From contig NC_086097.1 in assembly GCF_963921235.1 (NCBI RefSeq), positions 135,658,001-135,722,000 on the forward strand: a DNA stretch of 64,000 nt. Direction: 5' to 3'. Within the stretch, counting starts at the first letter, position 1. Every line of letters starts with the position of its first letter. The notes under the pieces were generated by a model. It had not been told where the DNA came from. It did not search any database and saw only the letters and a program-made list of their open reading frames with translations. The stretch comes from Mobula hypostoma (taxonomy: Eukaryota). The translations under genes and the position numbers were made by a program. Below, piece after piece: positions 2,153-60,300 of the stretch.

Positions 2153-2286
2153 CCTGATGAAGGGTCCCGGTCCAAAATGTCGCCTGTTTATTCATTTCCA
2201 TAGATGCTGCTTGACCTACTGAGTTCCTCTGGCATTTTCTGTCTGTTTCTCCAGATTTCCAGCATCTGCAGAATCTCTTGTGTCTC
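2153..2286 (+). mobile_element. Penelope-derived short element with decayed hammerhead motif
   Basis: CTGATGA-AGGGTCCCGGTCC-AAAATGTC (GAAAC mutated) followed by TAGATGCTGCTTGACCTACTGAGTTCCTC and CCAGCATCTGCAGAATCTCTTGTG; same family as 7031-7139 and 14311-14444. Confidence 0.7.
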
Positions 2287-4109: not shown

Positions 4110-6900
4110 CTCCCATTAAAACCCCCCACCTTAAATTCCTTCATATACCTGTCTAGTAGTCTCTTAAACTTCACTAGTGTATCTACCTCCACCACTGACT
4201 CAGGCAGTGCATTCCACGCACCAACCACTCTCTGAGTGAAAAAACCTTCCTCTAATATCCCCCTTGAACTTCCCACCCCTTACATTAAAGCCATGTCCTC
4301 TTGTATTGAACAGTAGTGCCCTGGGGAAGAGGCGCTAGCTATCCACTCTATCTATTCCTCTTAATATCTTGTATACCTCTATCATGTCTCCTCTCATCCT
4401 CCTTCTCTCCAAAGAGTAAAGCCCTAGCTCCCTTAATCTCTGCTCATAATGCATACTCTCTAAACCTGGCAGCATCCTGGTAAATCTCCTCTGTACCCTT
4501 TCCAATGCTTCCATATCCTTCCTATAGTGAGGCGACCAGAAATGGACACAGTACTCCAAGTGTGGCCTAACCAGAGTTTTATAGAGCTGCATCATTACCT
4601 CGCGACTCTTAAACTCTGTCCCTCGACTTTTGAAGGCTAACACCCCATAAGCTTTCTTAACTACCCTATCTACCTGTGAGGCAACTTTCAGGGATCTGTG
4701 GACAGGTACCCCCAGATCTCTCTGCTCCTCCACACTACCAAGTATCCTGCCATTTACTTTGTACTCTGCCTTGGAGTTTGTCCTTCCAAAGTGTACCACC
4801 TCACACTTCTCCGGGTTGAACTCCATCTGTCACTTCTCAGCCCACTTCTGCATCCTATCAATGTCTCTCTGTAACCTTTGACAATTCTCCACACTATCCA
4901 CAACACGACCAACCTCTGTGTCGTCTGCAAACTTGCCAATCCACCCTTCTACCCCCACATTCAGGTCATTAATAAAAATCACAAAAAGTAGATATCCCAG
5001 AACAGATCCTTGTGGGACAGCACTAGTCACAACCCTCCAATCTGAATGCACTCCCTCCACCACGACCCTCTGCTTTCTGCAGGCAAGCCAATTCTGAATC
5101 CACCTGGCCAAACTTTCCTGGATCCCATGTCTTCTGACTTTCTGAATAAGCCTACCATGTGGAACCTTGTCAAATGCCTTACTAAAATCCACGTAGATCA
5201 CATCCACTGCACTACCCTCATCTATATGCCTGGTCACTTCCTCAAAGAACTCTATCAGGCTTGTTAGACACGATCTGCCCATCACAAAGCCATGCTAACT
5301 GCCCCTGATCAGACCATGATTCTCTAAATGCCCATAGATCCTATCTCTAAGAATCTTTTCCAACAGCTTTCCCACCACAGACGTAAGGCTCACTGGTCTA
5401 TAATTACCCAGACTATCCCTACTACCTTTTTTGAACAAGGGGACAACATTCACCTCCCTCCAATCCTCTGGTACCATTCCCGTGGACAACGAGGACATAA
5501 AGATCCTAGCCAGAGGCTCAGCAATCTCTTCTCTCGCCTCGTGGAGCAGCCTGGGGAATATTCCGTCAGGCCCCAGGGACTTACCTGTCCTAATGTATTT
5601 TAACAACTCCAACACCTCCTCTCCCTTAATATCAGCATGCTCCAGAACATCAACCTCACTCATACTGTCCTCACCGTCATCAAGTTCCCTCTCATTGGTG
5701 AATACCGAAGAGAAGTATTCATTGAGGACCTCGCTCACTTCCACAGCCTCCAGGCACATCTTCCCACCTTTATCTCTAATCGGTCCTATCTTCACTCCTG
5801 TTGTCCTTTTGTTCTTCACATAATTGAAGAATGTCTTGGGGTTTTCCTTTGCCCTACTCGCCAAGGCTTTCTCATGCCCCCTTCTTGCTCTTCTCAACCC
5901 CTTCTTAAGCTCCTTTCTTGCTTCCCTATATTCCTCAATAGACCCATCTGATCCTTGCTTCCTAAACCTCATGTATGATGCCTTCTTCCACCTGACTAGA
6001 TTTTCCACCTCACTTGTCACCCATGGTTCTTTCACCCTACCATTCTTTATCTTCCTCACCGGGACAAATTTATCCCTAACATCCTGCAAGAGATCCCTAA
6101 ACATCGACCACATGTCCATAGTACATTCCCCTGCAAAAACATCATCCCAATTCAACCCGCAAGTTCTAGCCTTATAGCCTCATAACTTGCCCTTCCCCAA
6201 TTAAAAATGTTCCTGTCTTCAGTGATTCTATCCTTTTCCATGATAATGTTAAAGGCCAGGGAGCAGTGGTCACTGTCCCCCAGATGCTCACCCACTGAGA
6301 GATCTGTGACCTGACCCGGTTTGTTACCTAATACTAGATCTAGAATGGCATTCCCCCTAGTCGGCCTGTCAACATACTGTGACAGGAATCCGTCCTGGAC
6401 ACACTTAACAAACTCTGCCCTGTCTAAACCATTGGAACTAATCAGGTGCCAGTCAATATTAGGGAAGTTAAAGTCATCCACGATAACAACCTGTTATTTT
6501 TTCATCTTTCCAAAATCTGCCTCCCAATCTGCTCCTCGGTATCTCTGCTGCTACCAGGGGGCCTATAGAATACCCCCAGTAGAGTAACTACTCCCTTCCT
6601 GTTCCTGACTTCCACCCATATTGACTCAAAAGAGGATCCTGCTGCATTACCCACCCTTTCTGTAGCTGTAATAGTATCCCTGACCAGTAATGCCACCCCT
6701 CCTCCCCCCCCATCCCATTTAAAGCACTGAAATCCAGGAATATTGAGAATCCATTCCTGCCCTGGTGCCAGCCAAGTCTCTGTAATGGCCACTATATCAT
6801 AATTCCATGTATGTATCCAAGCTCTCAATTCATCGCCTTTGTTCCTGATGCTTCGTGCATTGAAGTACACGCACTTTAGCCCTTCTACCTTACTACCTTT
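4110..6900 (-). pseudogene. CR1 ORF2 (APE endonuclease + reverse transcriptase), broken by stops and frameshifts
   Basis: ORF pieces 6502-7014 (NARSIRNK, ITETWL), 6152-6481 (DFNFP, LDLVL, SDH), 5295-6155 (GPDG, NYRPVSLTS), 4830-5285 ([19 protein letters not shown]), 4335-4826 (LVRPHLEYC). Confidence 0.93.
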
Positions 6901-7030
6901 ACACCCTTTTTTCTGCTTCTCTTTCTTCAAAGTCTCTTTATATGTTAGATCGAGCTTTACTCCATGCACTACATGTATACTTGCAGTTCTCGCATGACCT
7001 TTATCCTGCTCCACCTCACTATCTGCTCTA

Positions 7031-7139
7031 TCTGCTCTATCTGTCCTGACGAAGGGTCTCGGCCTGAAACGTTGACTGCACCTCTTCCTACAGATGCTGC
7101 CTGGCCTGCTGCGTTTCCACCAGCAACTTTGATGTATGT
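7031..7139 (+). mobile_element. Short Penelope-derived insertion into the CR1 inter-ORF region
   Basis: Foreign ~110 bp flanked by TATCTGCTCTA at 7020-7030 and 7140-7150. Confidence 0.8.
7043..7076 (+). ncRNA. Putative minimal type I hammerhead ribozyme
   Basis: GTC-CTGACGA(7046-7052)-A-GGGT/CTCG/GCCT-GAAAC(7066-7070)-GTT-GAC; all core nucleotides present, stem III is the palindrome ACGT; activity untested. Confidence 0.6.
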
Positions 7140-7182
7140 TATCTGCTCTAACACTTGGTTCCCCTCCCCCTGCAAATCTAGT

Positions 7183-8060
7183 TTAACCCCCCCCCCCCCC
7201 CACCGGAGCAGCACTAGCAAACCTTTCCGCAAGGATATTAGCCCCCCTCCAGTTCAGGTGCAACCCGTCTCGTCGGAACAGGTCCCACCTTCCCTGGAAC
7301 AAGGCCCAATTGTCCAGACACATGAAGCCCTCCCTCCTGCACCAACTCCTTAGCCACGTATTTAGCTGCATTATCTTCCTTTTTCTAGCCTCACTAGCAT
7401 GTGGCACGGGTAGCAATCCTGAGATTGCAACCCTGGAGGTCCTGTCCTTCAACTTTGCACCTAACTCCCTAAACTCTCTTTGCAGGACCTCCTCCTTCTT
7501 CCTATCCATGTCATTAGTCCCTACATGGGTCACAACATCTGGCTGCTCACCTTCCCTCTTGAGAATACTGAGAACTCGATCTGAGATATCGCGGACCCTG
7601 GCACCAGGGAGGCAACAGACCATCCGAGATTCTCGATCTCTCTCACGGAACCTCTTATCTGTCCCCCTAACTATCGAATCCCCTATCACTACTGCTCTTC
7701 TCTTTTCCCTCCTTCCCTTTTGAGCTGAGGGTCTAGTCTTGGTGCCAGAGACACAACCACTGCAACTTGTCCCCGGTAGGTCGTCCCCACCAACAGTATC
7801 CAAAACGGTATACTTATTATTGATGGGAATGGCCACAGGGGTGCTCTGCTCATTCTGTCTATTCCCCTTCCCTCTCCTGACAGTCACCCAGCTACCTGTC
7901 TCCTGACTTGTCGGGGTGACTATCTCCCTGAAACTCCTGTCTATTTCTGCCTCTGCCTCACGAATGATCAGAAGTTCATCCAGCTCCAGCTCCAGTTTCC
8001 TAACTCGGTTTGTCAGGAGCTGTAGCTGGATGCACCTTTTACAGGTGTAGTCATCAGGGT
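7183..8060 (-). pseudogene. CR1 ORF1p with SGNH/GDSL esterase domain; N-terminus apparently lost
   Basis: CKRC followed by leucine heptads (LQLLTNRVRKLELELDEL), then VIGDSIVR, CLPGARV, HVGTND and DGLHLN esterase blocks within ORF 7183-8142. Confidence 0.9.
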
Positions 8061-8094
8061 CAGTTGTGCCCGCCTTGACAGTCGTGCAGTCGTG

Positions 8095-8273
8095 CAGTCG
8101 TGCCCCATTCAAACTGCCGAAGAAATGATCTCCCCTTTTCAATCTGTTCGCTTTTTAAACTCTCCCGCTGTCTCACAGGCCAACATTCACGTGCCTGCGC
8201 AGTCGTGCCCTGTTCAAACTGCCGAAGAAATGACCTCCCCTTTTCAATCTGTTGGCTTTTTCAACTCTCCTGC
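8095..8273 (-). repeat. 105-bp tandem monomers in CR1 5' UTR (about 1.7 copies)
   Basis: CAGTCGTGCCC..TTCAAACTGCCGAAGAAATGA.CTCCCCTTTTCAATCTGTT at 8095 and 8200. Confidence 0.85.
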
Positions 8274-12940: not shown

Positions 12941-14310
12941 GCTTTTTTTCATGATTATTATCACCCAGTGCTCACAGTTAATGAACTCTAAATTCTTCCG
13001 TTTACTGCTTTTAAAAAACCTCAATTGCGTCTTCTCTTTTGAAAAACATGTCTTGGCTACATTTGCTTAAAACTCGACTGTTTCACCACGTGAAAATGAT
13101 AGGTATCAGATTTATTATTACTGACTTATAGGATGTGAAATTTGTTTGTTTTTTTTGCTGCAGCAGCAGTACAATGCAAAGACGTAAAATTACTATAAAT
13201 TACAAAAATAAATAGTGCAAAACAAAAAGAATAATGAGGTAGTGTACATGAGTTCATAAATCATTCAGAAATAGAATGGCAGAGGGGAAGAAGCTGTTTC
13301 CGAGTTTGGGTCCTTAGGCTCTTGTACCTCCTCCCTGATGGAAGTATCGAGAAGAGCGAATATCCTCAATAGCGGGGTCCTAGTTGATGGATGCCACCAC
13401 CTTGTGACATCAAGAAGTGGCCACCACTACTTAGTTGGCCACTGTACATTGTTCCCAGTGTGCAGGTGAGTTGTAGAACTGGGCAGAGCTGAGAGTGTGG
13501 GAGTGATGGAAATATGGGGAGAATAGATTACGGGCAAAATAAATAATGGGATTTTCTGGCATAGACTTGGAACTTAGCATAGCTCAGCAGAGAACAGCAC
13601 CTTTGGCACACCATATTGTACTGAACTAATGAAAGTGGTAATTAAATGCCTAATTAAACTAATTTCTTCTGCCTACACAAAATCCGTATCTCTCTTGTCA
13701 TCTCTAAGTGTCACACCCACTTGATGGGCTAATGGGTGTTGTGCAAACTTAACTGTAACTGCGATGATTGGAAAGGATGAGACCAATAGCAAAAGGAATC
13801 AGATTGAAATTATTTTTACACAAATAAGGAAGATGCTAAAGACCAGATAATTCCAAAAGATAAGCTGAATACAGTAAAAGCATCAGGGGTAGAGGGAGAA
13901 GGGCAGATGTGCCAATTTAATTCTTCATGTCAGTTTTCAAATGAAGACTACTGACAATTTCTAGGGCCAGTTGAACTAAAACTGGAAATCAGTAACATAT
14001 GTTCAACATGTGTTGCCAGGGAACTCAAAGCAGAAATGTCGACAGATCTTGAAGCAGCTGGGGAAATAACACAGAATTTACAAGGAAGTGAGTGAGGAAA
14101 TAGGCAAGACCCTGGTTAATACTTGCAGGAACTTCATAAATACGTAGATTGTCTCTGAGGTTTGTGAGAATTACTCAGCTAATTCCAACACTTATAAACA
14201 CGAAGAAAGCGTGTATTCAGGAATGATGGATCAATTAGTACTGCACTGGGAAAAATTCTCTGACAGTACATTCATTGCTTGTTTAAGTGAACATGAAAGG
14301 AAGACCCTGA

Positions 14311-14444
14311 AGACAAGAAATTCTGCAGATGCTGGAAATCCAAAGCAACAGACGCAAAATGCTGCAGGAACTCAGCAGGTCAGGTAACCTCTATGGAATA
14401 AATAAACAGTTGATATTTCGGGCCGATACCCTTCTTCAGGACAC
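14311..14444 (-). mobile_element. Penelope-derived short element with intact hammerhead core
   Basis: - strand reads GTC-CTGAAGA-A-GGGT/ATCG/GCCC-GAAAT-ATC-AAC, then the family body CCTGACCTGCTGAGTTCC...CCAGCATCTGCAG. Confidence 0.75.
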
Positions 14445-27499: not shown

Positions 27500-27800
27500 T
27501 CATCCCTGTTCCACTGTCCTCTCCTTTTCAGAGTCAAATTCCTTCGGCCCTTTGTTACTCCTACTCTTCACCTCCTAGATTCTTACAGCATTTCCACACT
27601 CATGTTCTCTCACCTGCCGATTACACCACTCACCCAGTTCCACCTACACCTGCCAGCATTTAATCAACCTCTTCTCCCAACATTTTTATACTGGCTATCT
27701 CCCTTCTTTGTCTTCAATCCTGATGAAACATCAACCATCCATTTCTCTCCAGAGCTGTTGAATTCCTGCAACATTCCTCCAGAATTTCAGCATTTGCAGT
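27500..27800 (+). mobile_element. Penelope 3' UTR relic with collapsed hammerhead motif
   Basis: Pyrimidine-rich UTR then CAATCCTGATGAAACATCAAC (stem II deleted) and TTTCAGCATTTGCAGTC. Confidence 0.55.
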
Positions 27801-28366
27801 CCCTTTTAACCACTTTCTATTGTCCCTTCTTGGGTAGATGAACACACAAGCTGACCAGTACCTGTCTCACAACATTGTTGAGGAAAGTTAACTAGTAATT
27901 GGACAAAAATCTTCCTGGGTTCTTGCTATACACCAATTGGCACAATTTTTTTGTGACACACCAGGGAAAATGCAGGTTATTTTTCTAAGGAAGTAGGAAG
28001 TGATGATGGTTCTGTGGGAGAGATTGTTTCAACACTATAGTATTGCAAAGTTAGAAACAATTCTGTACATTGCAGGGTAGGAATGACATTAGGTTGAATT
28101 ATTAGACTCTGTAAATATTTGATATCAGGAATGATGGAAAAATGTGAAGAATGACTTGAAAGACTATTTTTGTGGCTAGTGCAGGGTTTGCAGGGCAAGG
28201 GTTAAGATTTCCTAGTTTTTTTGGTGGGTTTCTAGTGAAAGTTAATGTCTAGTGATTGGCACACCTGATGGATTAAGAACTTGATTTGATGCACATTCAC
28301 TACCCTGAACAGAGTGGCCTCGTTGCTGTTGGTTTTTGGGGTTCAAAATAGTTCGCTTCATTTCTG

Positions 28367-28920
28367 GAGACACAAAAGACTTCCGATGCTGGAATCCAGA
28401 GTAACAAATAACCCACTGGTGGATTCAACGGTTAGAGCATCACTAGTGGGAGAGAAGGGAGAGAAAGGAATTGTTGACATTTTCTGGTGAAATCTTGCAT
28501 CAGGGCCAGTTTCTGGTAACTGTTAGGGCCTTGAATCATGTACAGATCTGCGTAGTCACTGTTTGCAGTTAGGGCTTTGATTCCGACAGTACAGAATGTT
28601 CTTAGTGCCTGCAGCTTCCTCCTGGGCACCATGCCAAGAGAGTGGAAGCCTTCTTGGAATAATATGATACTGGCATCTGGCCTCTGTTAATGGAGAGCAG
28701 AAGGTGGAGTGAAAAGAGGGTGGGAATGGGGGCTGGGGTATGGGATGGTGTTTGGGGAGATGTGGATGGACAAGATCTCATTTGGAGATACAAGAGACAG
28801 CAGATTCTGGAAACTGGAGCAACACATACCAATGATGCCGAAACTCAGCAGGCCAGGAAACATCTATGGAGAGAAATAGACAGTTGACATTTTGGATTGA
28901 GACTATTTATCTGAACTTCA
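28367..28920 (-). mobile_element. Two decayed Penelope-derived short elements (~28367-28507 and ~28785-28918)
   Basis: GATGCTGGAA / CTCAGCAGGCCAGG / GTTGACATTTT family motifs. Confidence 0.55.
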
Positions 28921-29764
28921 AATGGAGTCGGATACAATCAGAAGAGTAAGATGTGCTGAACTTTATGAAAGTTATGGGTCTGGAGAGCTCATGGGTAGTC
29001 AGTTGGCATCCAATGAGAGACATAGATGAGGACTTTTGGAAGTGATGGCTGATGATTGAGCTTTGCTTGGAAGAATGTAGTGTTTCAATCTTATACAAGA
29101 CCAACAGATCTATAGCTTAATTATGAAGCAAGGCAACAACATGACTTGACATAGAAGTTGGCAAACACATGTAGTGGAATTTTCGCTGGAATAAAATTTG
29201 AACCAGCAGATTTCTGTAGATGACCAGATCTCCTCCACACTGGGATAAGATCTCAGGAAGTTCACACTTTCAGGCAGAAGAAAGCCATCCCCACTTTGGT
29301 TTGTAATGGAAGCTTAAGTTTCAGTCTGGATAAATCATCGACCTTATCTCTCATGGAACATTTCACCGAGGCCTTTGAATCTTTTATTCTCTGTGCTGAA
29401 GTAATATTTGAATGCATGATGAGGTGGAAATTCCAGCTTAGTAAAGTCCTAATATTGGAAATACTCTACACTACAGCAGCATGGGTACAGAAACTAATGT
29501 TTCATGTCTTAGCACTTCCTTGGAACCGTGGACATTCTCCAAGTCTTCCACACATCTTCACATTCTAGCACATTTGTTTTACATTTTGAAATAATCTTCC
29601 TGTAGTCCTGGGGACAGGCTTAGCCTCAAAGATTTAGAGACACTGGAGGCTGCAGTTGCTGCAACAAACGGTCGGCTGGACCAGCTCAGTGTGCTGAGCA
29701 GTAACTGAAGGAGACAAGGAATTGTTTCATGTTTCAGGTTGAAACCCTGCATCTGTCATCAAAT

Positions 29765-30125
29765 ATTGAAAAGCTTTGACAGAGTGAGAGTGGAGTGGAT
29801 GTTTCCTGTAGTTGGGGAGGATAGGGCCGGGGGCAAGGACTCTGAATAGAAGGACAATCCTTTAGAACAGAGATAAGGAGGAATTTATTTAGCTAGAGGA
29901 TGGTGAATCTGTGGAATCCATTGCCACAGACAGCTATGGAGGCCAAGACATTGGGTATATTTAAAGTTGATGTTGATAGGTTCTTGATTAGTCAGGGCTT
30001 CAAAGGTTACAGGGAGAAGACAGGAGAATAGGGTTGAGAGGGATAATAAATCGGCCATGTTGGAATGGTGGAGCAGACTTGATGGGCTGAATGGCCTAAC
30101 CTGCTCCTATATTTTATGGTCTTAT
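29765..30125 (+). mobile_element. CR1 LINE 3' fragment
   Basis: Matches 2885-3228; ends TTTTATGGTCTTAT. Confidence 0.75.
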
Positions 30126-30644
30126 TGACCAAAATGTCGACCCTTTCTTTCTTCCGGCAGATGCTTCTTAACCCGCTGACTTCCCCCAGCCGATTGCTCT
30201 AAGTTCTTTATTGTGTTCATTTTGAAACTTGGAGAAAGAGTTAATGTGTTTAGTGCTGGAGGTAAGTCATTTATAAATTTGCAACCCATTATAAGTTTGA
30301 ACACTGTGCCCTCATTTGGCTCTCCTTGAATTAAAATGGGCCTGATTTTTTTCAGCATTTCTCTGCTTTCATTTGATTTGGAGCTTTGGTGTAACTGCTT
30401 CCAATTCTGATTTTCCTGCTCTTGTTTTATTCTCTATCGTCAGGTTCATGGACCACTTGGAATGTTTTGCTGCAACACCCAGACCTCAAGGTGAGGTGAG
30501 TGCTGGAACTAGGGATGTGAGCTATTGAATTTGTAAATGGCATAATCCAAATCAATTGCCCACTGCACCTCAGCTACTGTAGGCTCTAAATATTACACAG
30601 GCATAAAAAGATGCTTAGGGGAGGTTTGGTGCAAAATACTAATA

Positions 30645-35700: not shown

Positions 35701-36414
35701 TAGACAAAAAATTCAGCAATATTGTAGGACTAAGCTGCACACAGACCCATGACAATATTAATACACTGTCAAGACTTCAAAAGATCATCGTCGACTGGCA
35801 AGAGGTTGGTTCATAAAAGGTGCTAAAGAAACATCTTGATCCTCCTCTACTAGGACAAGGGGTCAGCAAGCGAATATATGGAAGATTCCAGGACTGAATA
35901 GTCAAGTTCCAATGCAACACCCAGGATTTTTGCCACAAAGTTGAAACTTGTCATCAAATCTTCCTCAAGCATTCACATGAAGAATATGGTGAGGGTAAAG
36001 TTCCTCCTCCAGGCAACTTCAGTAAGCTTAGAGGTTAATTTTTACGTCCAACATTGCTTTTTTTTTTCCTGCTGTGGTTATTGGCAAAAAGACTTCCATG
36101 CTTGGACCACAGCTGGAAGCTGTTAGCATAGCTGACCACAGAATACAAGGGCACCAAGTACAATGTTAACCTTGTTCAGCCAGAATGAAACGATGACTAA
36201 CATTGATGCAGATGATCTACCAATGTCCTGGGGAGGGCTGCTATTTTTAATGGGGTGTCTGAGGCTGAGGGAGCACCAGCAGGTTTGTTACTGGGAGGAA
36301 CAGGCAAGCGGGCCTCCTCCCCGCACAGCCTCTTTCCCACTTTCTTCATTTCTGCTGCCTCCATCGGTGCGACAAGACCCCGTATTGAACTCATGCAAGT
36401 CCAGTTTTAATCCA

Positions 36415-36622
36415 ACACATGAAACACCAGAGGAACACAATGGGACAAGCAGTATTTATGGAGGGAAATGGACAATCAGTGTTTTAGGACAAGCCCTTTA
36501 TCAGTTCAGACTCAAAACAGCAACAGTACATCTCCCTCCACAGATGCTGCCTGAACCTCTGGGTTTCTCCTCTGGTTTGTCTGTTGCTCCAGATTCCAGT
36601 ATCTGTAGTCTCTGGTGTCTCT
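36415..36622. mobile_element. Two Penelope-derived short elements in inverted orientation
   Basis: Left part resembles the reverse complement of CCTCCACAGATGCTGCCTGA...CCAGATTCCAGTATCTGTAG on the right. Confidence 0.5.
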
Positions 36623-36719
36623 AGTTTTAACCTAGCCTGCCACTGGCTCTAATGCTGGGTCATAAACCTCAAATGTTAGCTCTACTTCTCTCTCCACTCA
36701 TCACAGATAAAGCCCTTCT

Positions 36720-38260: not shown

Positions 38261-38446
38261 ATGTCTGTGACGTGTTGAGGCTCAGTCTACACCTGCTGAA
38301 TAGATTAATGAAGGGAGAGTGACAGATAGACAGACAAAGGGATATAGAAAAGCAGTGAAATGCAGTGGCAATAGTTGTAAAAGGAAAAGGAAACTATCTC
38401 AGCAGATCAGGCAGCATCTGTGGAGAGAGATGAACTGAGATAATGT

Positions 38447-39540
38447 TATAGATGGATAAATTTACTGCACACCTCCACGACTGCCTGTGACAAAGAATTC
38501 CATAGATTCACCACCCTCCTTATCTCTGTTCTAAAAGGATGCCCCTCTATTCTGAGGCTGTGTCCTCTAGTCTTTGATTTTCCCTCAATACGAAACATCT
38601 CCTCCACATCAACTCTGTCGAGGTCTTTCATCATTCAATTGGTTTCAATCAGATCACCTTTGATTCTTCAGAATTCTAGTGAATTCAAACCCAGAGCCAT
38701 CAGACGCTCTTCACATGACAAGCCATTCAGTCCTGGAATCATTTTTGTGACCCTCCTTTGAATCCTCTCCAGTTTCAGCACATCCTTTCTAAGATAAGGG
38801 GCCCAAACCTGCTCATAATACTCTAAGTGAGGCCTCACCAGTCCTTTATAAAGTTTCAACATTACATCCTTGCTTTTACATTCTGGTCCTCTTAAAGTGA
38901 ATGCTAACATTGCACTGGCCTTCCTCAACACAGGCTCAACCTGCAAACTAACCTTTAGGGAATCCTGCACAAGTCCCTTTTTTTGTATCTTCTCTCCATT
39001 TAGAAAAAGTCAACCCTTTCATTTCTTCTACTGAAGTGCATGACCATATACTTTCCAACACTGTATTCCATCTGCCATTTCTTTGCCTATTCTCCTAATC
39101 TGTCTAAGTCCTTCTGTAACCTCTCTACTTCCTCAAAATTACCTGATCGTCCATTTATCTTCATACCATCTGCAAACCTTGCAACAAAGCTATCAATTCC
39201 ATCATCCAAAATATTGACATATTACACGAAAAGAATTGTTCCCAACACAGACCCCTGTGGAAAACCACTAGTCATTGGCAGCCAGCCAGAGAGGGCTCCC
39301 TTTATTCCCACTCTTTGCTTCCTACCAATCAGCCACTGCTTTATCCATGCTAAAGTCTTTCCAGTAATACCATGGGCTCATAGCTTGCTAAGCAGCCTCA
39401 TGTGTGGCACCTTGTCAAAGGCCTTCTGAAAATCCAAGTACACAACATCAACTGATTCTCCTTTGTCTATCTGTCTTGTTACTTCTTCAAAGAATTCCAA
39501 TAGATTTGTCAGGCAAGATTTTCCCTTGAGGAAACCATGC
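38447..39540 (-). mobile_element. CR1 LINE RT fragment
   Basis: [11 protein letters not shown] region near 39400-39430; ORFs 38668-38970 (LVRPHLEY) and 38446-38634. Confidence 0.85.
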
Positions 39541-44071: not shown

Positions 44072-44900
44072 TACACTATTGGCTGCTTTATTAAGTGTAC
44101 TGTACACTTGCTCATTAATGCAAATATCTCATCAGCCAATCATTGGCAGCAACCTGGTGGTGCCATAGGGCTCCACGACAGCATTGCGGTTAGGGCCATG
44201 CTATCGCAGCTCAGGGAGTCGGAATTCAGAGTTCAATTCTGACACCGTCTGTAAGGAGTCTATACGTTCCTCCCTGTGACTATGTGCGTTTCCTTTGGGC
44301 GTTCCATTTTCCTCCCACAGTGCGGTAGGTTAATTAGTTATTGTAAGTTATCCTGGTATTAGGCTAAGGTTAAATAAGTGGGTTGCTCAGCTGTGAGGCT
44401 TGTTGGGCAGGAAGGGCCTGTTCCACATTATATCTCTGGACAAATTAATAAAAACAAATAAACTCAATGCATTAAAGCATGCAGATGTGGTCAAGAGGTT
44501 CAGTTGTTGTTTGGACCAAACATCAGAATGGGGAAGAAGAGTGCCAGACAGGGGGGTTTGAGTACCTCAGAAACTGCTGTACTCCTCAGATTTTCACAGA
44601 CAACATTCTCTACAGTTCACAGAGAATGGTATGAAAAAGACATCCAGTGAACGGCAGTTCTGTGGTTGAAAATACCTGGTAATGAGAGAGGGCAGAGGAG
44701 GCCAGACTGGTTCAAGCTGACAGGAAGGCAACAGTAACTCAAGTAACCACACATTACAACAGTGGTGTGCAGAGGAGCATGTCTGAACGCATAACAACAT
44801 TGGACCTTGAAGTGGATGGGCTACAGCAGCAGAAGACCATGAACATACACTCAATGGCCACTTTATTAGGTACAAGAGGCTAACAAATCAGCCACTGAGT
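44072..44900 (+). mobile_element. Tc1-derived element (same family), interrupted by a V-SINE
   Basis: Inverted homologue of 41945-42490, including TACACTCAATGGCCACTTTATTAGGTAC. Confidence 0.75.
44160..44460 (+). mobile_element. V-SINE (HE1-like)
   Basis: tRNA-like head, degenerate V domain (GTTTCCTTTGGGCGTTCCATTTTCCTCCCACAG), GAAGGGCCTGTTCC 3' end. Confidence 0.65.
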
Positions 44901-46270
44901 TTACTTTGATTTTAAATTCGCTTTGACTTTGAAAGGAAAAGCAGGAGGACTGGTGGATAACGGATAACAAGAACATACAATTATTGATCTGTACTCATGA
45001 GTACGTGCCAAATGGGTAAAGCTCAATGTGCATTCTACTGTATATAATTCTAATTGAAATTAGAATTGGTTTATTATTGTCTCATGTACTGTAATACAGT
45101 GAAAAACTTGTCTAACACACTGTTTATTCAGGTCAGATCATTACACAGTGCGTTGAGGTAGAATAAAGTGTAACAGGTACAGAGGAAGTGCATTGGCGAT
45201 AAACAATAAGGTGCAAGGTAATAATGAGGTAGATTGTGAGGTCAAGAGTCTACCTTATTGTATTATGGAACCATTCAATGGTTTTATAAAAGCCAAACTT
45301 CCTTCGCTTCCTGAGGAAGTCAAGGAAATAGAGGTGTTGGTGAGATTTCTTGGTCATGGAGCCTGTGGTTGGACCTGGACAGGTATTGGTGATGTTCACT
45401 CTTAGGAACATTATGTTTTAACCAATTATATCAAAGTTCAAAGTAATTTCAAAGTGAATTTATTATCAAAGTACATATATGTCACCTTACACTACCTTGA
45501 GATTCATTTTCTTGTAGGCATTCATAACAGAACAAAGAAATATGATAGAATCAATGAAAAACTACAGGCGGAAACTCTTAAACAAGCAATGTGCAGAAGA
45601 AGAACAACTGTGTAAATACAATAAATAAATAAAAAATAAACAACAAAAACATACATTAAATAAATAAGTTGATCAGATAAATGAATAGTAGAGTTCTTGA
45701 AAGTGAGTCCAAAGTTTGTGGAATCAGTTCGGAGTTGATGTGAGTGAAATTATCCTCGCTGCTTCAGGGGCCTGATGGTTGAAGGGTAATACCTACTCCT
45801 GAAGCTGGTGGTATAGGACCTAAGGCTCCTTCACAATAGCAGCAGCAAGAAGAGAGCTGACCTGGATGGTGGAGGTCCTTAAATTGTCTGCTGCTGTCTT
45901 GTGGTAGTGTTCCCTTTCGATGTGCATGATGGTGGGGAGGGCTTTGCCTGTGATGGGCTAGGCTGTATCTACCACTCTTTGTAGGCTTTCCACATTCCTG
46001 CCCCAATATTTCTTTTGAGATGTGAACATTTATTAAACTTATTCCTGGAACATTAATAGGATTGTTTCTAACAACTATTCCTGTGAACTCAAAGAACTTG
46101 ATCAAATCAGAGAGGTAGCACCCTGTGGAGCGTAAAACCACACTGGGATGACAAACTAAACACAGATCTCTCCACAATTTCATCAACATAATGATAAAAG
46201 AAATTTCTTACGTATTTGTTTGAACACCACTTCTATTTCTATTCCTCATTGATAGATTAGCCATACGATT

Positions 46271-47762: not shown

Positions 47763-47872
47763 GCTTCTCACCTCTGAGTCAGAAGGTTATGAGTCCAAAG
47801 AATCATGCTGGTGTTCCCAGTGCAGTACCAAGGGAATATCACAGTGTCAGTGATGTTATCTTTGAAATGAGC
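47763..47872 (+). mobile_element. DeuSINE (SacSINE1-like) 5' fragment
   Basis: CTCACCTCTGAGTCAGAAGGTTATGAGTCCAA tRNA-like head followed by CCCAGTGCAGTACCAAGGGAAT...TCTTTGAAATGAG. Confidence 0.6.
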
Positions 47873-47879
47873 CAAAAAA

Positions 47880-48530
47880 AAAGCCCTCTGGAGGAATCTG
47901 ATGAGTCAGACAGCGTCTGCGGAGGCAGAGGGGTGGTTGATGTTTCGGGCTGAAAGAGTAAAGGAGGATGGTCAGGAGAGGGGAGAAGCAAGAGCTGACA
48001 GATGATAGGTGGATCCTGGTGAGGATAGCTTGATGAGTAGATGGAGCCTGATAGGGGAGGGAAGGCTGGAGATGGTGACCGAGGCTGGGAGGTGATGTGG
48101 AGATAACCAGGGCTGCAGAAGATGCAACCTGATAAGAAATGAAGATGGTGGTTGGAACCAGGTTAGAGAGGGATGCGGGGTAGATGTGGACTGGAGGGAG
48201 AGAGAGAGGGAGAGGGGATCCAGTGAGTGAGTCTGTAGATATTGGTCAGGTGGAACCAGGTGGGGAGGGGAAGGGAACTGGGAAACAGAGGGCTGGATGG
48301 GAAGGTATTTGGAAAGAAGATAAGCTGGAGGACCTGGATAGATCAGGTGGAGAGATAAAGTTATGGGGGGGGGGTGTAAATTACCTGAAACTGGAGAATT
48401 CAATGATCATGCCAATGGATTGGAGACTACTCAGGTGGAACATGAGGAGCTGTTGTTCTGGTCTGTTCTGGGCTTGCTCCAGCTGTGGAGGAAGTTATGG
48501 ACAAACAAGTCAGTGGGAATGGGGAGGGAG
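47880..48530 (-). mobile_element. Penelope-like retroelement 3' relic
   Basis: - strand encodes EQQLLMFHLSSLQSIGMIIEFSSFR* (GIY-YIG endonuclease C-terminal type), then pyrimidine-rich UTR, partial hammerhead CAGCCCGAAACATCAAC and the short-element body. Confidence 0.7.
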
Positions 48531-48619: not shown

Positions 48620-51600
48620 TTTTTAAATCTTTTTATTAAATAAGTATACAAAAAGGTAAGCAATATAGACACTAATACATTGTTAGAATATAATAAAATT
48701 ACAGAAGATATTAATACAAAAAAAAACTACAAACAATGTAATTTAAACATAACATACCAAGGTAACATAATAGTATACTAATTTTATATATATATCAATG
48801 GAGAAAAAGAAAAAAAACCCCAAAAAAAACCCCACCGTGCAACTAACTAAAAGCAACGCAAAGCAATGGGCTAACTTGAAACCAAACAGAGTTAAACTTA
48901 AAATCACGTCCTCAATCCCGACCTCCATTAAAAACAGTGAAAAAAAACAAGAAGGGTATATATTACGTTAAATGAAAATATTGAATAAAAGATCTCCAAG
49001 TCTGTTCAAATTTAAATGAGGAGTCATAAAGATTGCTTCTAATTTTCTCCAAATTCAAGCATAATATCGTCTGAGAAAACCAAAAAAAGGTAGTTGGAGC
49101 ATTAAGCTCTTTCCAATGTTGTAAGATACATCTTTTCGCCATTAAAGTAAGAAATGCAATCATTCTACGGGCTGAAGGGGAGAGATTACTGGAAATTTTA
49201 GGTAGTCCAAAGATAGCAGTAATAGGGTGAGGAGAGATATCTATATTCAATACCTTGTAGATAATATTAAAAATGTCTCTCCAAAAAGTTTCCAAAGTAA
49301 GGCAAGACCAAAACGTATGAGTTAAAGAGGCTATCTGCCCTGGACATCTATCACAAAAAGGATTAATATGAGAATAAAAGCGCGCTAACTTATCTTTGGA
49401 CATATGTGCTCTATGAACAACTTTAAATTGAATTAGGGAATGTTTAGCACAGATAGAGGAAGTATTGACTAATTGTAAAATCTGCCCCCAGTCATCCACA
49501 GAAATGGTAAACCCCAATTCCTGTTCCCAATCTACCCTAATCTTATCAAATGGAGCTTTCCTAAGTTTCGTAATAATATTATAAATCATAGCCGATGCAC
49601 CTTTCTGACATGGATTAAGGTTGATTATAGTATCTAAAATGTATGTAGGAGGAAGCATTGGAAAGGAAGAAAGTATAGTACTTAGAAAATTTCTAACTTG
49701 TAAATATCTAAAAAAATGTATTCTTGATAAGTTATATTTATTAGATAATTGTTCAAAAGACATAAGGGAACCATCTAAAAATAAATCCAAAAACCGTGAA
49801 ATACCCTTAGTCTTCCAAATTTGAAAAGCACGATCCGTAAAAGAGGGAGGAAAAAATATGTTACCTAAAATAGGAATCGCTAACCCAAATTGATTAAGAT
49901 CAAAAAATTTTCTGAATTGAAACCAAATACGCAAGGTATATTTAACTATTGGGTTAGACACCTGTTAAAGGCGTTTCCAATCAAAAGGAAGAGAGGAACC
50001 TAAAATAGAGCCAAGTGTAAAACCCTGAACAGACTGTAATTCCAATATTACCCATTTAGGAATGGATAGTATATCCTGGTCCAGTAACCAGAATTTCATA
50101 TGTCGAATATTAATTGCCCAATAATAAAATCTAAAGTTAGGTAATGCTAAGCCTCCATCTCTCTTAGCTTGCTGTAAATGTATTTTACCCAGTCTCAGGT
50201 TTTTATTCTGCCAAATAAATGAAGAAATTTTAGAGTCAACTTTGTCAAAAAAAGATTTTGGAACAAAGATTGGTAATGCCTGAAATATATATAAAAACTT
50301 TGGCAAAAAAAACATCTTAACTGCATTAATACGACCAATCAAAGTTAAATATAAAGGAAGCCATTTAGATGAAAGTTGAGTAATATGGTCTATTAATGGT
50401 AAAAAGTTAGTCTTAAATAAATCTTTGTATTTACAAATAATTTTAATCCCAAGATATGAAAAATAATTATTAATCAATTTAAATGGAAATTTATAATATA
50501 AGGGAAGTTGTTTATTAATCGGAAAGAGTTCACTCTTACTAAGATTTAATTTATAACCTGTAAAAAGACCAAATTGTGCTAATAACTCTAAAACAGCCGG
50601 GATGGATTTTTGAGGATTAGAAATATATAAAAGTAAATCATCAGCATAGAGTGATAATTTATGGGACTTTAAGCCCCGAGTTATCCCAGTAATATTTGGA
50701 GATTCTCGAATGGCAATTGCAAGAGGTTCTAATGCAATATCAAATAATAAGGGACTAAGAGGACAGCCTTGTCGAGTACCTCGAAAAAGAGGGAAAAAAG
50801 GTGAACTTAAAGAGTTAGTACGGACCGAGGCCACAGGAGAATAATATAAGAGTTTAATCCAGGATATAAATTTCAAGCTGAAATTAAACCTTTCAAGCAC
50901 CTTAAATAAATAAGGCCATTCTACTCGATCAAAAGCTTTCTCGGCATCTAAAGAGATAACACACTCAGGAACATTTTGTGAGGGAGTATAAACGATATTT
51001 AACAGTGTACAAATATTACAAAAAGAGTAACGACCTTTAATAAAACCCGTTTGGTCTTCCGAAATAATAGAGGGAAGTACTTTTTCTAATCTATTTGCTA
51101 ATAACTTAGAAAAAACTTTAGAATCAACATTTAATAAAGATATTGGTCTATAAGATGCACATTGAGCAGGATCTTTATCCTTCTTTAATATTAAAGAGAT
51201 TGACGCTCTATTAAAAGGTTCAGGAAGTTTACCAAGTTTCAATGAAGCCTCAAAAACCCTACAGAGCCAAGGGATTAATGAAGGAGCAAAACATTTATAA
51301 AATTCTACGGTAAACCCATCAGGGCCAGGAGCTTTCCCCAAATTCATAGAGAAAATAACATTCTTAATCTCATCCATGGTAATAGGAGTATCTAACATAG
51401 AAGCCATATCCTGTGAAATCTCAGGGAAGTCTAAATTATCTAAAAAATCATTCATATATTTAGAATCTCGAGGAGACTCTGATTGATATAAGGGAGAGTA
51501 AAAATCACAGAAGGTTTGATTAATCCCCACATGATCAAGTATTAGTCGATCATTTTGGTTATAAATCTGATTAATTTGAGATTTAGCATAATTAGACTTC

Positions 51601-51927
51601 AATTGATTAGCCAACAGTTTACCAATTTTGTCACTGTGTACATAAAATTCACTTCTTGTTTTCTTTAATTGGTTTACAATCGAGGACGAGAGTAATAAAC
51701 TGTGTTCCATTTGAAGTTCAGTTCTTTGTTTATATAACTCCTCAGAAGGAGCTATAACATATTTCTTATCAATTTCCTTAATCTTGTCCACAATTACCAA
51801 CTCCTCCTGCTTCTGCTTCTTCCTCAAAGCAGCAGAATACGAGATAATCTGACCACGAATATAAGCTTTAAAAGTATCCCAAAGAGTGTTAACAGAAATA
51901 TCCTCTGTATATTGTATATTGTAATTG
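48620..51927 (-). mobile_element. L1-clade LINE, 5'-truncated, young
   Basis: 13-bp TSD TAGCTTGATTGTC at 48607-48619 and 51928-51940; AATAAA and short A tail at the 3' end. Confidence 0.95.
48963..51911 (-). pseudogene. L1 ORF2 (RT + C-terminal cysteine-rich knuckle); endonuclease missing; one in-frame stop at 49965-49967
   Basis: LWDTFKAYIRGQIISY, KAPGPDGF, YRPISLLNVD, SLDAEKAFDRV, RGTRQGCPLSP, LYADD, CDRC...HTFWSC; ORFs 49965-51827 and 48963-49961 are in the same frame. Confidence 0.95.
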
Positions 51928-52091
51928 TAGCTTGATTGTCAAGTTTGCAACATTATGCCTATATCTAAACTTTAGAAGTTGTTCATTGGCCGCCAAGCTT
52001 TTTGGAATATTCTTGGGCTTTGACATATATTAAGTGAATATAAACTTTCTGTTCCCATTTGAAACTAGTCAAATCAATGGATTCCAGGTTT

Positions 52092-56469: not shown

Positions 56470-58045
56470 AGGCTAACAAGTGGAGACACCATACTGGATC
56501 TAACACTAGACAATGAACCTGGTCAGGTATCGGATCACTCAGTGAGTGAGAATTTAAAAGACAGTGATCACAAATCCCTGACCTTTAGCATAGCCAGAGA
56601 CAAGAATAGGAGCAGATGGGGTGGGAATATTTAATTGAGGCGGATTAATTACAATGGTATCAGCCAAGAACGTGGGAGTGTAAGCAAGGAGCAGACGTTC
56701 TCAAGCAAAATGTGGAGATTATTTAAGGAAGACTTGCATAAGGTTCTGGATAGGTTTATACCATTGAGAGAGGAAAGGGATGGTATAGTGAAGGAACCAT
56801 AGCTGACGTAAGTGACTTGAGGGTCAGATCATGCCATATAAGCCTGATTGACTTTTTCGAGGAAGTGACAAAACAAATTGATGAAGGTAGAGTGGTGGAT
56901 GTGGCGTGTATGGATTTCAGTAAGGCAGTTGCCAAGGTTCCCCATGGAAGGCTCAGCCAGAAAGTAAGGATCCGTGGAAAACTGGCAGTGTTGATTTGGA
57001 ATTGGCTTGCTCACAGAAGGCGGAGGGTGGTAGATGGACCATATTCTCCCTAGAGGTTGCTGACCAGCAGTGTTCCATAGGGGACTGTTCTAGGACTCCT
57101 GCTCTTTGTGATTTTTATAATCCAAGGGAAAGGGTGGGATAGTATTTTTGAAGATGACATGGAGGTTGGTGGTGTTGAATTCAAGAGCTGTAAAGTCACA
57201 TTGCAGCTCTATGAAACTTTTGGTTAGACCAGACTTGGAGCATTGTGTTCAGTTCTGGTCATCTCACTATAGGAAGGGTGTGAAAGCTGTGGAGAAGGTA
57301 CAGAGGAGACTTACTAGGAAGCTGCCTGGATTACAGAACATGCCTTGTTGAGGAAAGGTTGAGTGAGCCAGTTTTTCTCTCTGGAGAGAGAAATGAATGA
57401 TCACTTGATAGAGGTGTATAACATTATGAGAGGCACAGACAGAATGGACATAGTGCCTTTTCCCCAGGGTGGTAATGGCTAACACCAGAGGACATGCTTT
57501 TAAGGTGAGAGGAGAAAAGTTTAGGAAAAACGTCAGAGATAGATTTTTATACACATGGATTGGTAGGTGCCTGGAATGCGCTGCCAGGGTTAGTGGTGAA
57601 TGGTAAGTATCTGGAATACGCTGCCAGGGTTAGTGGTGAATAGCAAGTATCTGGAATACACTGCCAGGGTTAGTGGTGAATGGTAAGTATCTGGAATACA
57701 CTGCCAGGGTTAGTGGTGAATGGTAAGCATCTGGAATACACTGCCAGGGTTAGTGGTGAATGGTAAGTATCTGGAATACACTGCCAGGGTTAGTGGTGAA
57801 TGGTAAGTATCTGGAATACACTGCCAGGGTTAGTGGTGAATGGTAAGTATCTGGAATACACTGCCAGGGTTAGTGGTAGTAGCTGATACACTGGGAACTT
57901 TCAAGAAATCTTATGCAGATGGATGAAAGAAAAATGATGGTTGTTGGTTATGTAGGAAGGAAGGGTTAGGATTATTGTGCAGTAGGTTAAAAAGTCTACA
58001 CAACATCATGGGCTGAAAGACCCATACTGTGCCGTACTGTTCTGT
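56470..58045 (+). mobile_element. Decayed, internally deleted CR1 LINE
   Basis: ILDLTL, SDH, DFSKAVAKVPHGRL and LVRPDLEHCVQFWS remnants. Confidence 0.85.
57571..57878 (+). repeat. 40-bp minisatellite (about 7.7 copies)
   Basis: Unit CTGGAATACACTGCCAGGGTTAGTGGTGAATGGTAAGTAT repeated head to tail. Confidence 0.97.
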
Positions 58046-58468: not shown

Positions 58469-60011
58469 CAGGTGTCCCCCGCATTTCGAACGTTCGCTTT
58501 ACGAAACCTCACTGTTACGAAAGACCTACATTAGTACCCTGTTTTCGCTTTCAGAAGGTGTTTTCACTGTTATGAAAAAAAAAATCAGCGCACAATAAAA
58601 GGCAGCGTGCACCCCGAGCAGCCGCTCTCCCCTGGATTTGGAACAGCATTGCTTAAACACGAGCCTGTGAGCAGCTGTTTGCAAGATGAGTTCTAAGGTA
58701 TTGGAAAAGCCTGAAAGAGCTTGTAAGGGTGTTACACTTAGCGTAAAACTAAATATAATTAAGCGTTTTGATCATGGTGAACGAAGTAAGGACAACGTGA
58801 GTTTGGCTTGTGGAAGCTGACGAAGATGATGTTGAAGAGGTTTTGGCATCCCATGACCAAGAGCTGACAGATGAAGAGCTGATGAAATTGGAAGAAAAAA
58901 GGATAACAATCGAAACTGAATGAGTAATGATAAAGCACGACTTTAATTTTGAAAGGGTACATCGGTTTAGGAGATATTTGCAGGATGGTTTGAGTCCTTA
59001 CAAAGAACTGTGTGATAGAAAAATGCGCGAGGCTCAGCAGTCAAGCCACATCAACCACAGCAAACGATGAACCTCAACCTTCGACATCGAGGTGGGCAGA
59101 GATAGAAGAAGATGAGCTGCCTGCTCTAATGGAAACAGACGATGATGAGATGACACCCCAGTGTCCCACCATCCCAACCCCCAGGCCACGGACAGATACC
59201 GATTCGTGGAGAATGCAGTGGTAGCCGGGAGGCACACAGCGCATCTTTAAGAAAAAAGCCGAAATAAACAAGCTAATTAATTAGGTGCTGCCCGACACGT
59301 AATTGTCAGCCCAGATCAGAGACAACGCAATCGGAAATCGCCTCTGATCTGGGCCGACAATTACATGTTGGGCGGCACCTAATTAATTAGCTTGTTTATT
59401 TCGGCTTTTTTCTTAAAGATGTGCTGTGTGCCTCCCGGTTATCGCTGCATTCCTGCATGCTTTGCGGCAATGTATTGGTCGGCAGCCTGGAGGGTGGGGC
59501 CACTGCACCACCCAACCTGCGACGACTCAGTCTAACACACCATCCGTGTGCTCGGTGCTGTCTTCCCGATTCCCATAAGTGATACTACACTGTACATACA
59601 TTATTTCTACTTTATATAGGCTGTGTATTTTTATGTGTTATTTGGTATGATTTGGCAGTTTCATAGCTTAAAGGTTACTGGAGAGAGTGTTTTTGCCAAC
59701 AGCGCTTGCGTGAGATTTTCTGCTGACGGCGCTTGCGTGAGATTTTTGCTACGGAGAACAGTTCAGTAATGATCGTGGAAAAGTATTTCTACTTTATATA
59801 GGCTGTGTATTTATCTGCTTTTACTATATGTTACTGTTATTTTAGGTTCTATGTGTTATTTGGCATGATTTGGTAGGTTATTTTTGGGTCTGCGAACGCT
59901 CACAACATTTTCCCATATAAATAAATGGTAATTGCTTCTTCGCTTTATGACATTTCGGCTTACGAACCATTTCATATGAACGCTCTACCTTCGGATGGCA
60001 GGGGAAACCTG
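58469..60011 (+). mobile_element. Tigger/pogo-type DNA transposon, internal-deletion derivative
   Basis: TA TSD (58467-58468, 60012-60013); termini CAGGTGTCCCC / GGGGAAACCTG; from ATG 58686 MSSKVLEKPERACKGVTLSVKLNIIKRFDHGE (CENP-B-type HTH start) joined to EDDVEEVLASHDQELTDEELMKLEE (C-terminus); no DDE core. Confidence 0.9.
59211..59452. repeat. Long inverted repeat, 111-bp arms and 20-bp spacer
   Basis: Arms 59211-59321 and 59342-59452; 8 differences counted by eye, all transitions. Confidence 0.97.
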
Positions 60012-60019
60012 TAGTTCTA

Positions 60020-60300
60020 ACACAACAAATAAGGTGCCAGCAGAATTCAGCGGGTCTGCCGGCATCTATGGAGAGAAAGAGATAAGTGGCATTTCGAATT
60101 AACACCCTTCATTGTGGACTGAAAGCTTGAGGTGAAATAGCCAGCAGAAAGCGGTGGGAGCAAGCAGTGGTGCAAGAGCTCCCAAGCCACGTGGATCCAG
60201 GTGAGGAAGGGTGATCGGGAAGTGGAGGAGGGAAAAGTAGGAAGCATTTCCAAGTTTAATGACAACGTGAGAGCAGATGGGGTCATGCATAGTGACAGAG
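60020..60300 (-). mobile_element. Penelope 3' UTR relic with decayed hammerhead motif
   Basis: - strand CAGTCC-ACAATGA-AGGGTGTTAATTC-GAAATGCC, followed by CTCCATAGATGCC. Confidence 0.55.

Follow-up and report, generated by a model that had tools for sequence, protein, structure and literature searches.

Penelope-like elements (PLEs) and hammerhead motifs of the kind considered here have already been described in many animals. The minimal hammerheads of Cervera and De la Pena (2014, PMC4209133) have a type I layout with CUGANGA and an extra nucleotide, G10.1, GAAAN, a palindrome at 15.2-16.2 without loop 3, an NUH triplet and a short stem I, and are mostly solitary, dispersed copies. Position 11.1 is usually C; G-U at 10.1-11.1 occurs in some of the listed motifs, e.g. 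S. mansoni(1) and X. tropicalis(1). A dimer-cleaving type of small PLE-associated hammerhead has a very short palindromic stem III (Lunse, Weinberg and Breaker, cited in PMC6765202). The minimal PLE hammerhead of S. mansoni is reported to show no cleavage as a monomer and low cleavage as a dimer. In Poseidon of Anolis carolinensis (PAc; Frangieh et al. 2024, PMC11167929) the hammerhead lies near the element end with an internal start of reverse transcription behind it, the ORF starts at stem II and the uncut RNA is the main insertion substrate. According to that study, the PAc hammerhead cleaves only with the PLE protein, cleavage is dispensable for insertion, and no Anolis RNA-seq reads end at the cut site. 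Non-LTR retrozymes (Cervera and De la Pena 2020, PMC7229834; Li, Clavereau and Pollet 2026, bioRxiv 10.64898/2026.07.22.740005) are non-coding, hammerhead-bearing and derived from PLE pseudo-LTRs (pLTRs), with dispersed monomers, and are defined as a class by tandem hammerhead units; among Xenopus retrozyme dimers 1 of 9 is reported active and 8 of 9 without cleavage. In the one chondrichthyan genome covered by the 2026 preprint, hammerhead-bearing retrozymes are reported. Otherwise the accessible literature, which includes few subscription journals, held nothing relevant on a chondrichthyan PLE hammerhead, and no chondrichthyan motif is among the 56 of Fig. S3 or in Table S1 of PMC4209133.

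The motif at 7043-7076 of the window (the whole 64-kb stretch of DNA that was analysed) shares all of the listed features of the minimal hammerheads and the very short palindromic stem III of the dimer-cleaving ones; its 4-bp stem II is at the short end of the published range. It resembles PAc in the position of the hammerhead near the element end and of the apparent internal start behind it, but the window copies show no evident open frame from the hammerhead. With the non-LTR retrozymes it shares the non-coding, hammerhead-bearing, dispersed and probably pLTR-derived character, whereas tandem hammerhead units are absent from the 14 Tandem Repeats Finder rows of the window and the 7043 copy is a 97-nt fragment with a target duplication. 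The motif is best read as a minimal type I hammerhead in the pseudo-LTR of a very abundant PLE family, the 7043 copy being a probably inactive, strongly 5'-truncated insertion (probability about 0.85). A reading of the motif as surprising is not supported, the class being described already in PMC4209133. Coordinates are summarized in Table 1.

Table 1. Features of the hammerhead locus, its host element and related copies in the window.
Feature	Position	Strand	Basis
Minimal type I hammerhead motif	7043..7076	+	Sequence; descriptor match; fits consensus of PMC4209133 Fig. S3
Stem I, 5' strand	7043-7045	+	Sequence
CUGACGA box	7046-7052	+	Sequence
Extra A, unpaired, between 9 and 10.1	7053	+	Sequence
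Stem II, 4 bp	7054-7065	+	Sequence
GAAAC	7066-7070	+	Sequence; GAAA box = 7066-7069
ACGU palindrome, loopless stem III	7069-7072	+	Sequence
NUH triplet GUU	7071-7073	+	Sequence; predicted cut after 7073
Stem I, 3' strand	7074-7076	+	Sequence; stem I = 3 bp
Element-derived part of insertion, 97 nt: hammerhead and 63 nt of downstream terminal-repeat sequence	7043..7139	+	Family similarity; depth peak and loose ends at 7043
Extra target-like letters at 5' junction (9-nt target-site unit re-copied)	7031..7042	+	Tandem unit 7019-7043; missing from empty-site contigs
Target-site duplication, 11 bp, left copy	7020..7030	.	Repeat; empty-site joints 7030 to 7156, 4/4 runs
Target-site duplication, 11 bp, right copy	7140..7150	.	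Repeat; empty-site contigs
Host element, broken LINE, presumably CR1-type	4335..8154	-	ORFs; Pfam Lipase_GDSL_2, Exo_endo_phos
LINE ORF1, esterase-bearing	7183-8154	-	ORFs; Pfam search
LINE ORF2 start, AP-endonuclease	6502-7182	-	ORFs; Pfam search
Related copy, G12 to A; possible 8-bp target duplication	2153..2282	+	Profile search; core alignment
Related copy, all core letters, G10.1-C11.1, C17; stem I closing pair mismatched (C2.1/A1.1)	14307..14442	-	Profile search; core alignment
Related copy with pyrimidine-rich upstream tract; stem II deleted; limits approximate	27660..27810	+	Family alignment
Decayed related copy	28364..28513	-	Profile search; family alignment
Decayed related copy	28782..28925	-	Profile search; family alignment
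Decayed related copy	29635..29765	-	Family similarity
Related copy starting within stem II	30122..30230	+	Profile search; family alignment
Two related copies, inverted head-to-head, meeting in hammerhead region (G12 at 36485-, 36514+)	36386..36624	.	Profile search
Related copy, only part downstream of hammerhead	38393..38462	-	Family similarity
Longest related copy: pyrimidine-rich tract of ~430 nt, then hammerhead remnant, 5' half deleted	47858..48380	-	Alignment
Degenerate frame end resembling PLE GIY-YIG endonuclease C-terminus	48381..48506	-	Directly upstream of ~430-nt tract; PLE C-terminal HMM, tblastn
Related copy with pyrimidine-rich upstream tract; upstream limit approximate	59993..60180	-	Profile search

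The 34 bases of the motif agree letter for letter with the preliminary description, and the minimal type I anatomy proposed there was recovered, with both boxes, the extra A, the NUH triplet and the short stem I present; the dimer-type palindromic stem III likewise holds as anatomy, ACGU having no loop 3. Stem II of the 7043 copy is closed with two G-U wobbles, G10.1-U11.1 and U10.4-G11.4. The relaxed descriptor search that had been proposed (CUGANGA, one extra base, G, spacer, pyrimidine, GAAACGU, H) gave a single match in the 64 kb and no match in any of 100 dinucleotide shuffles, while the two boxes alone were only mildly enriched (16 matches vs 8.3 expected). The Rfam search, also proposed, returned no hammerhead model at E up to 10, its 12 matches all being unrelated.

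The 7043 copy has U at both 11.1 and 17, and the commonest form of the family is probably C11.1/C17 (GUC). Both would be CpG-type changes, yet inside the range of published variants. Published minimal motifs include cases of G-U at 10.1-11.1 and of U17, so neither alone proves inactivity; GUU is listed among active hammerhead cleavage sites, and the accessible literature yielded no cleavage-rate data for GUU or G10.1-U11.1. With U17 the palindrome grows to six letters (7068-7073), so that A14 could pair with U17 in a dimer, which may lock the cut site; the predicted duplex energies are -3.5 kcal/mol for the six-letter palindrome and -1.7 kcal/mol for ACGU.

Contigs from 4 of 24 listed sequencing runs (X1, X5, X17 and X20) were compared with a 481-nt stretch around the insert. 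Contigs of LINE relatives jump from 7030 to 7156 in all four runs (5, 3, 14 and 1 contigs), with six letters at the joint that equal 7151-7155 plus one base. These empty-site joints and the 11-bp duplication identify 7031-7150 as the insertion plus one target copy. The first 12 inserted bases are target repeat and the family sequence covers 7043-7139, so that this 97-nt fragment opens directly with the hammerhead. It is antisense to the host LINE and lies near the ORF1/ORF2 junction. We take this LINE to be of the CR1 type. In the upstream consensus of the family, taken from loose ends in the runs, CA precedes GUC and could pair with UG after GAC; since the 7043 copy starts at the hammerhead, this longer stem I is reduced to 3 bp here. 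The insert contains the letters on either side of the cut position, so the copied RNA was uncut or rejoined there; the intact motif implies an uncut insertion substrate as in PAc. The copy ends 66 nt behind the cut site, and several others are about 35-45 nt longer (by eye, few copies); EN+ Penelope-like elements are reported to have an optional tail of 30-40 bp at the 3' end. Splice-acceptor-like motifs flank the hammerhead on both sides. Some 20 nt behind the cut site, pyrimidines and YAG precede an ATG (7077-7096; most copies), and in the family consensus pyrimidines and CAG stand directly before stem I. Each of the two might mark where a PLE 5' intron ends.

The dispersed repeat family of the preliminary description was confirmed, as were all 11 of its listed positions. 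A profile from 4 seed copies found 9 further copies (E 3e-15 to 0.25), giving 13 in the window; those beyond the original list are one at 38435 (-) and a second, inverted copy at 36500 (+). Twelve of the 13 were aligned at the core by hand, anchored on GAAA, the copy at 38435 not containing that part. Decay at CpG sites, also claimed earlier, is heavy at the three such sites around the core, as seen in G12 to A (6/12), 15.2 to T (6/12), 16.2 to A (6/12) and 1.1 to A (8/12). Every core letter is kept in only two aligned copies (7046+ and 14439-); the other 10 of 12 have lost core letters. C11.1 is found in 7 of the 12. At 14409-14442 (-) stem III reads AUAU, changed on both sides with the palindrome kept; this is probably two CpG changes and possibly compensatory. 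The pyrimidine-rich upstream tract is kept in 3 of 12 copies and resembles, by eye, the loose-end consensus of the runs. An inverted 5' piece at 2133-2152 was considered and rejected as not established (score 20-22 vs a background maximum of 22).

The hammerhead-bearing family reaches very high abundance in the runs of three species labels. On the 481-nt stretch, DNA runs of these labels gave 30,820, 13,968 and 14,577 contigs. Summed depth, which is not a copy number, amounted in X1 to 6.4-6.6 million over 7054-7104 against 0.01-0.28 million on the LINE flanks; the contrast was weak in X17, with 0.36-0.86 million over the insert against up to 1.2 million on the flanks. X20 is guessed to be RNA, and for this reason its family contigs were not counted as evidence of expression. 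C17 makes up 85% of the depth in X1, 91% in X5, 93% in X20 and only 30% in X17. In two species labels GUC prevails, and given the low share in X17, U17 may be a subfamily state instead of decay. Among the 40 of 85 variants listed no core letter varies except 17; position 7065 (11.1) is not among these 40, so C11.1 as the family state rests on the 7 of 12 window copies.

The Penelope origin given in the preliminary description is supported by several indirect lines, and no intact PLE ORF was found in the window. In combination these lines make a PLE origin of the family very probable. A relaxed 27-nt pattern, derived from the window motif, picked out 33 metagenome loci that belong to other animals by their flanks and have no further BLASTN similarity to the window at E 1e-5 beyond the motif; a strict family pattern had no match in metagenome contigs and a slightly looser one none in viral contigs. 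Locus L022 carries the motif at the 5' end of a 961-aa ORF that has a reverse transcriptase (RT) match and whose homologues contain RT, GIY-YIG and related domains; L021 and L009 each have an ORF that finishes with a GIY-YIG domain, and the motif follows 677 nt behind its end. Stem I, which the pattern leaves unconstrained, covaries in these loci, with 64 of 75 cells paired vs 44.6 when shuffled (0/5000, in shuffles that ignore relatedness of the loci), and all three of its pairs change on both sides among 19 distinct motifs. None of the 120 and 50 PLE homologues listed bears a chondrichthyan name. L022 (1-3018), with an apparently complete PLE ORF (961 aa, stop to stop) and the same minimal hammerhead, is usable as a model element. 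An inverted piece of the locus's own sequence precedes the hammerhead, by eye, in several of L010, L013, L019, L025, L028, L029 and L033. An inverted, 5'-truncated partner beside the terminal repeat is described for PLEs in PMC8557442, and the head-to-head pair at 36386-36624 shows this arrangement.

A putative endonuclease-like frame end precedes the longest copy, its stop standing at the far end of the tract that extends for about 430 nt upstream of the remnant at 47946 (-). The segment at 48381-48506 is the best window match of an HMM built from 50 PLE C-termini (6.7 bits, a score reached by 5 of 20 shuffled controls), a profile that is post hoc in that its proteins were chosen after seeing which C-termini resembled the segment. 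It is also the top tblastn match in the window (E 0.001 with the best of 50 queries), aligned in register with the extreme C-terminus, and a matrix built on 104 more distant proteins places it 7th among 127,852 positions. Neither tblastn with two PLE ORFs nor an HMM of 120 distant PLE proteins detected it, and Pfam, phmmer and word searches had no match. The 37-aa peptide at the ORF end had no match in Pfam, none among 1.84 billion representatives and no informative one in the ESM Atlas (best 0.82), and its 59-aa read-through form gave two candidates, neither scoring. The frame end appears suggestive by position and is not significant alone.

Lacking a loop, stem III cannot be closed within a monomer, and the family is likely of the dimer type. 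The double-hammerhead fold predicted for the 7043 motif can be drawn with 18 standard pairs, none of them crossing. Its nearest-neighbour energy is -5.7 kcal/mol vs -21.9 kcal/mol for the best dimer fold; the same active fold has -3.5 to -15.5 kcal/mol in 18 natural comparators, which makes the 7043 copy the second weakest of 19. Such energies ignore tertiary contacts of the core, and the 18 comparators look unfavourable or misfolded too. In the best predicted monomer fold the core letters 5-8 are paired with 15.2-17, and in that of the 109-nt insert (7031-7139) neither stem I nor stem II forms. No intact same-strand partner for the 7043 copy was found in the window. This copy also has G-U in place of G-C at 10.1-11.1, U17 and a stem I of 3 bp, and cleavage at the locus in vivo is unlikely.

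Other readings of the motif were weighed against the truncated PLE insertion. A chance look-alike within an unrelated repeat, such as a SINE or a LINE tail, would fit the missing Rfam match and the fold of the 109-nt insert, which is no better than that of shuffles (z 0.76), but this is highly improbable in view of the empty result in 100 shuffles, of the extra A, G10.1, palindrome and closed stem I, which lie outside the boxes and all fit, and of the same motif standing beside PLE ORFs of other animals with stem I covarying. The family could instead descend from an autonomous element and now be a separate short retroposon of about 100-150 nt. It would consist of a solo hammerhead and tail, comparable to a retrozyme monomer, have a defined 5' end of its own at stem I and be mobilised in trans by the PLE protein. 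Half of the aligned copies (6/12: 2154, 7046, 14439, 28505, 28915 and 29755) indeed start within a few bases of the stem I 5' strand, only three retain the upstream tract, and this tract ends in pyrimidines and CAG just before stem I, like the intron end mapped to this position in D. virilis; pLTR-derived retrozyme monomers are, moreover, reported in vertebrates including one chondrichthyan. However, these boundaries were judged on few, mostly old copies, the window has no tandem array of the unit, strong 5' truncation is reported to be usual among PLE insertions, and in each of the four runs the consensus of the loose ends at 7043 leads on into the pyrimidine-rich tract, if with low agreement (0.38-0.41). 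We regard a separate retroposon as unlikely, and it stays a rival because the sample of copies is small and old.

The preliminary description further held that the repeat is able to seed conditional cleavage sites. Such sites would work on host transcripts, with dimers arising in trans or from neighbouring copies. All core letters are present at 7043, the double hammerhead can be drawn, and the abundance of the family makes partners in trans conceivable. The claim nevertheless fared poorly, this copy being isolated and weakly folded and most others having lost core letters: the window has one further copy with an intact core, which lies on the other strand, the closest copy on the same strand is 4.9 kb off and has lost G12, and the active dimer is far weaker than the best fold. 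No host exon was detected among the 108 non-repeat ORFs, and the published monomers, dimers and Anolis reads cited above show little or no cleavage. Conditional cleavage of host transcripts is accordingly improbable. A still bolder version, in which hammerhead and tail form a separate, massively amplified retroposon of 100-150 nt with its 5' end at the splice-acceptor-like site, and its transcripts pair in trans via ACGU with the PLE protein as chaperone and cut host pre-mRNAs, has a very small probability.

The insertion anatomy of the 7043 copy is shown by the sequence and the empty sites, and the enzymatic steps are modelled on the Anolis PLE study. The endonuclease of the element would have nicked the CR1 LINE, and its reverse transcriptase would have started internally, behind the ribozyme, and synthesized about 100 nt as far as stem I; repair would then have left the 11-bp duplication. 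In the active parent element the motif would cleave only as a double hammerhead through ACGU pairing and/or with the PLE protein, by analogy with published PLE hammerheads. The 7043 copy itself is most likely a neutral relic.

About 43% of the window was masked by self-similarity or LINE proteins. A Pfam search of 108 non-repeat ORFs of at least 72 aa, in which short exons would be missed, found no host-gene domains and two LINE-type matches only. An L1/Tx1-like ORF2 at 48963-51938 (-) has RT and zf-RVT matches and one stop in the part examined, and is fairly young. Two long, near-perfect hairpins at 59280-59383 and 44843-44906, with weak matches to miRNA models far below gathering scores, are likely small inverted-repeat transposons. 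At 57571-57877 a 40-nt unit forms a tandem array of 7.7 copies with 97% matches.

The single copy at 7043 gives no sign of a host function. For the family, the known association of a PLE terminal repeat with a minimal hammerhead is extended to a very abundant family in three related species labels, probably cartilaginous fishes. Its abundance makes it a good natural data set on PLE hammerheads, both for asking whether they cleave in vivo in the first place and for mapping the start and stop points of PLE insertions with respect to the ribozyme.
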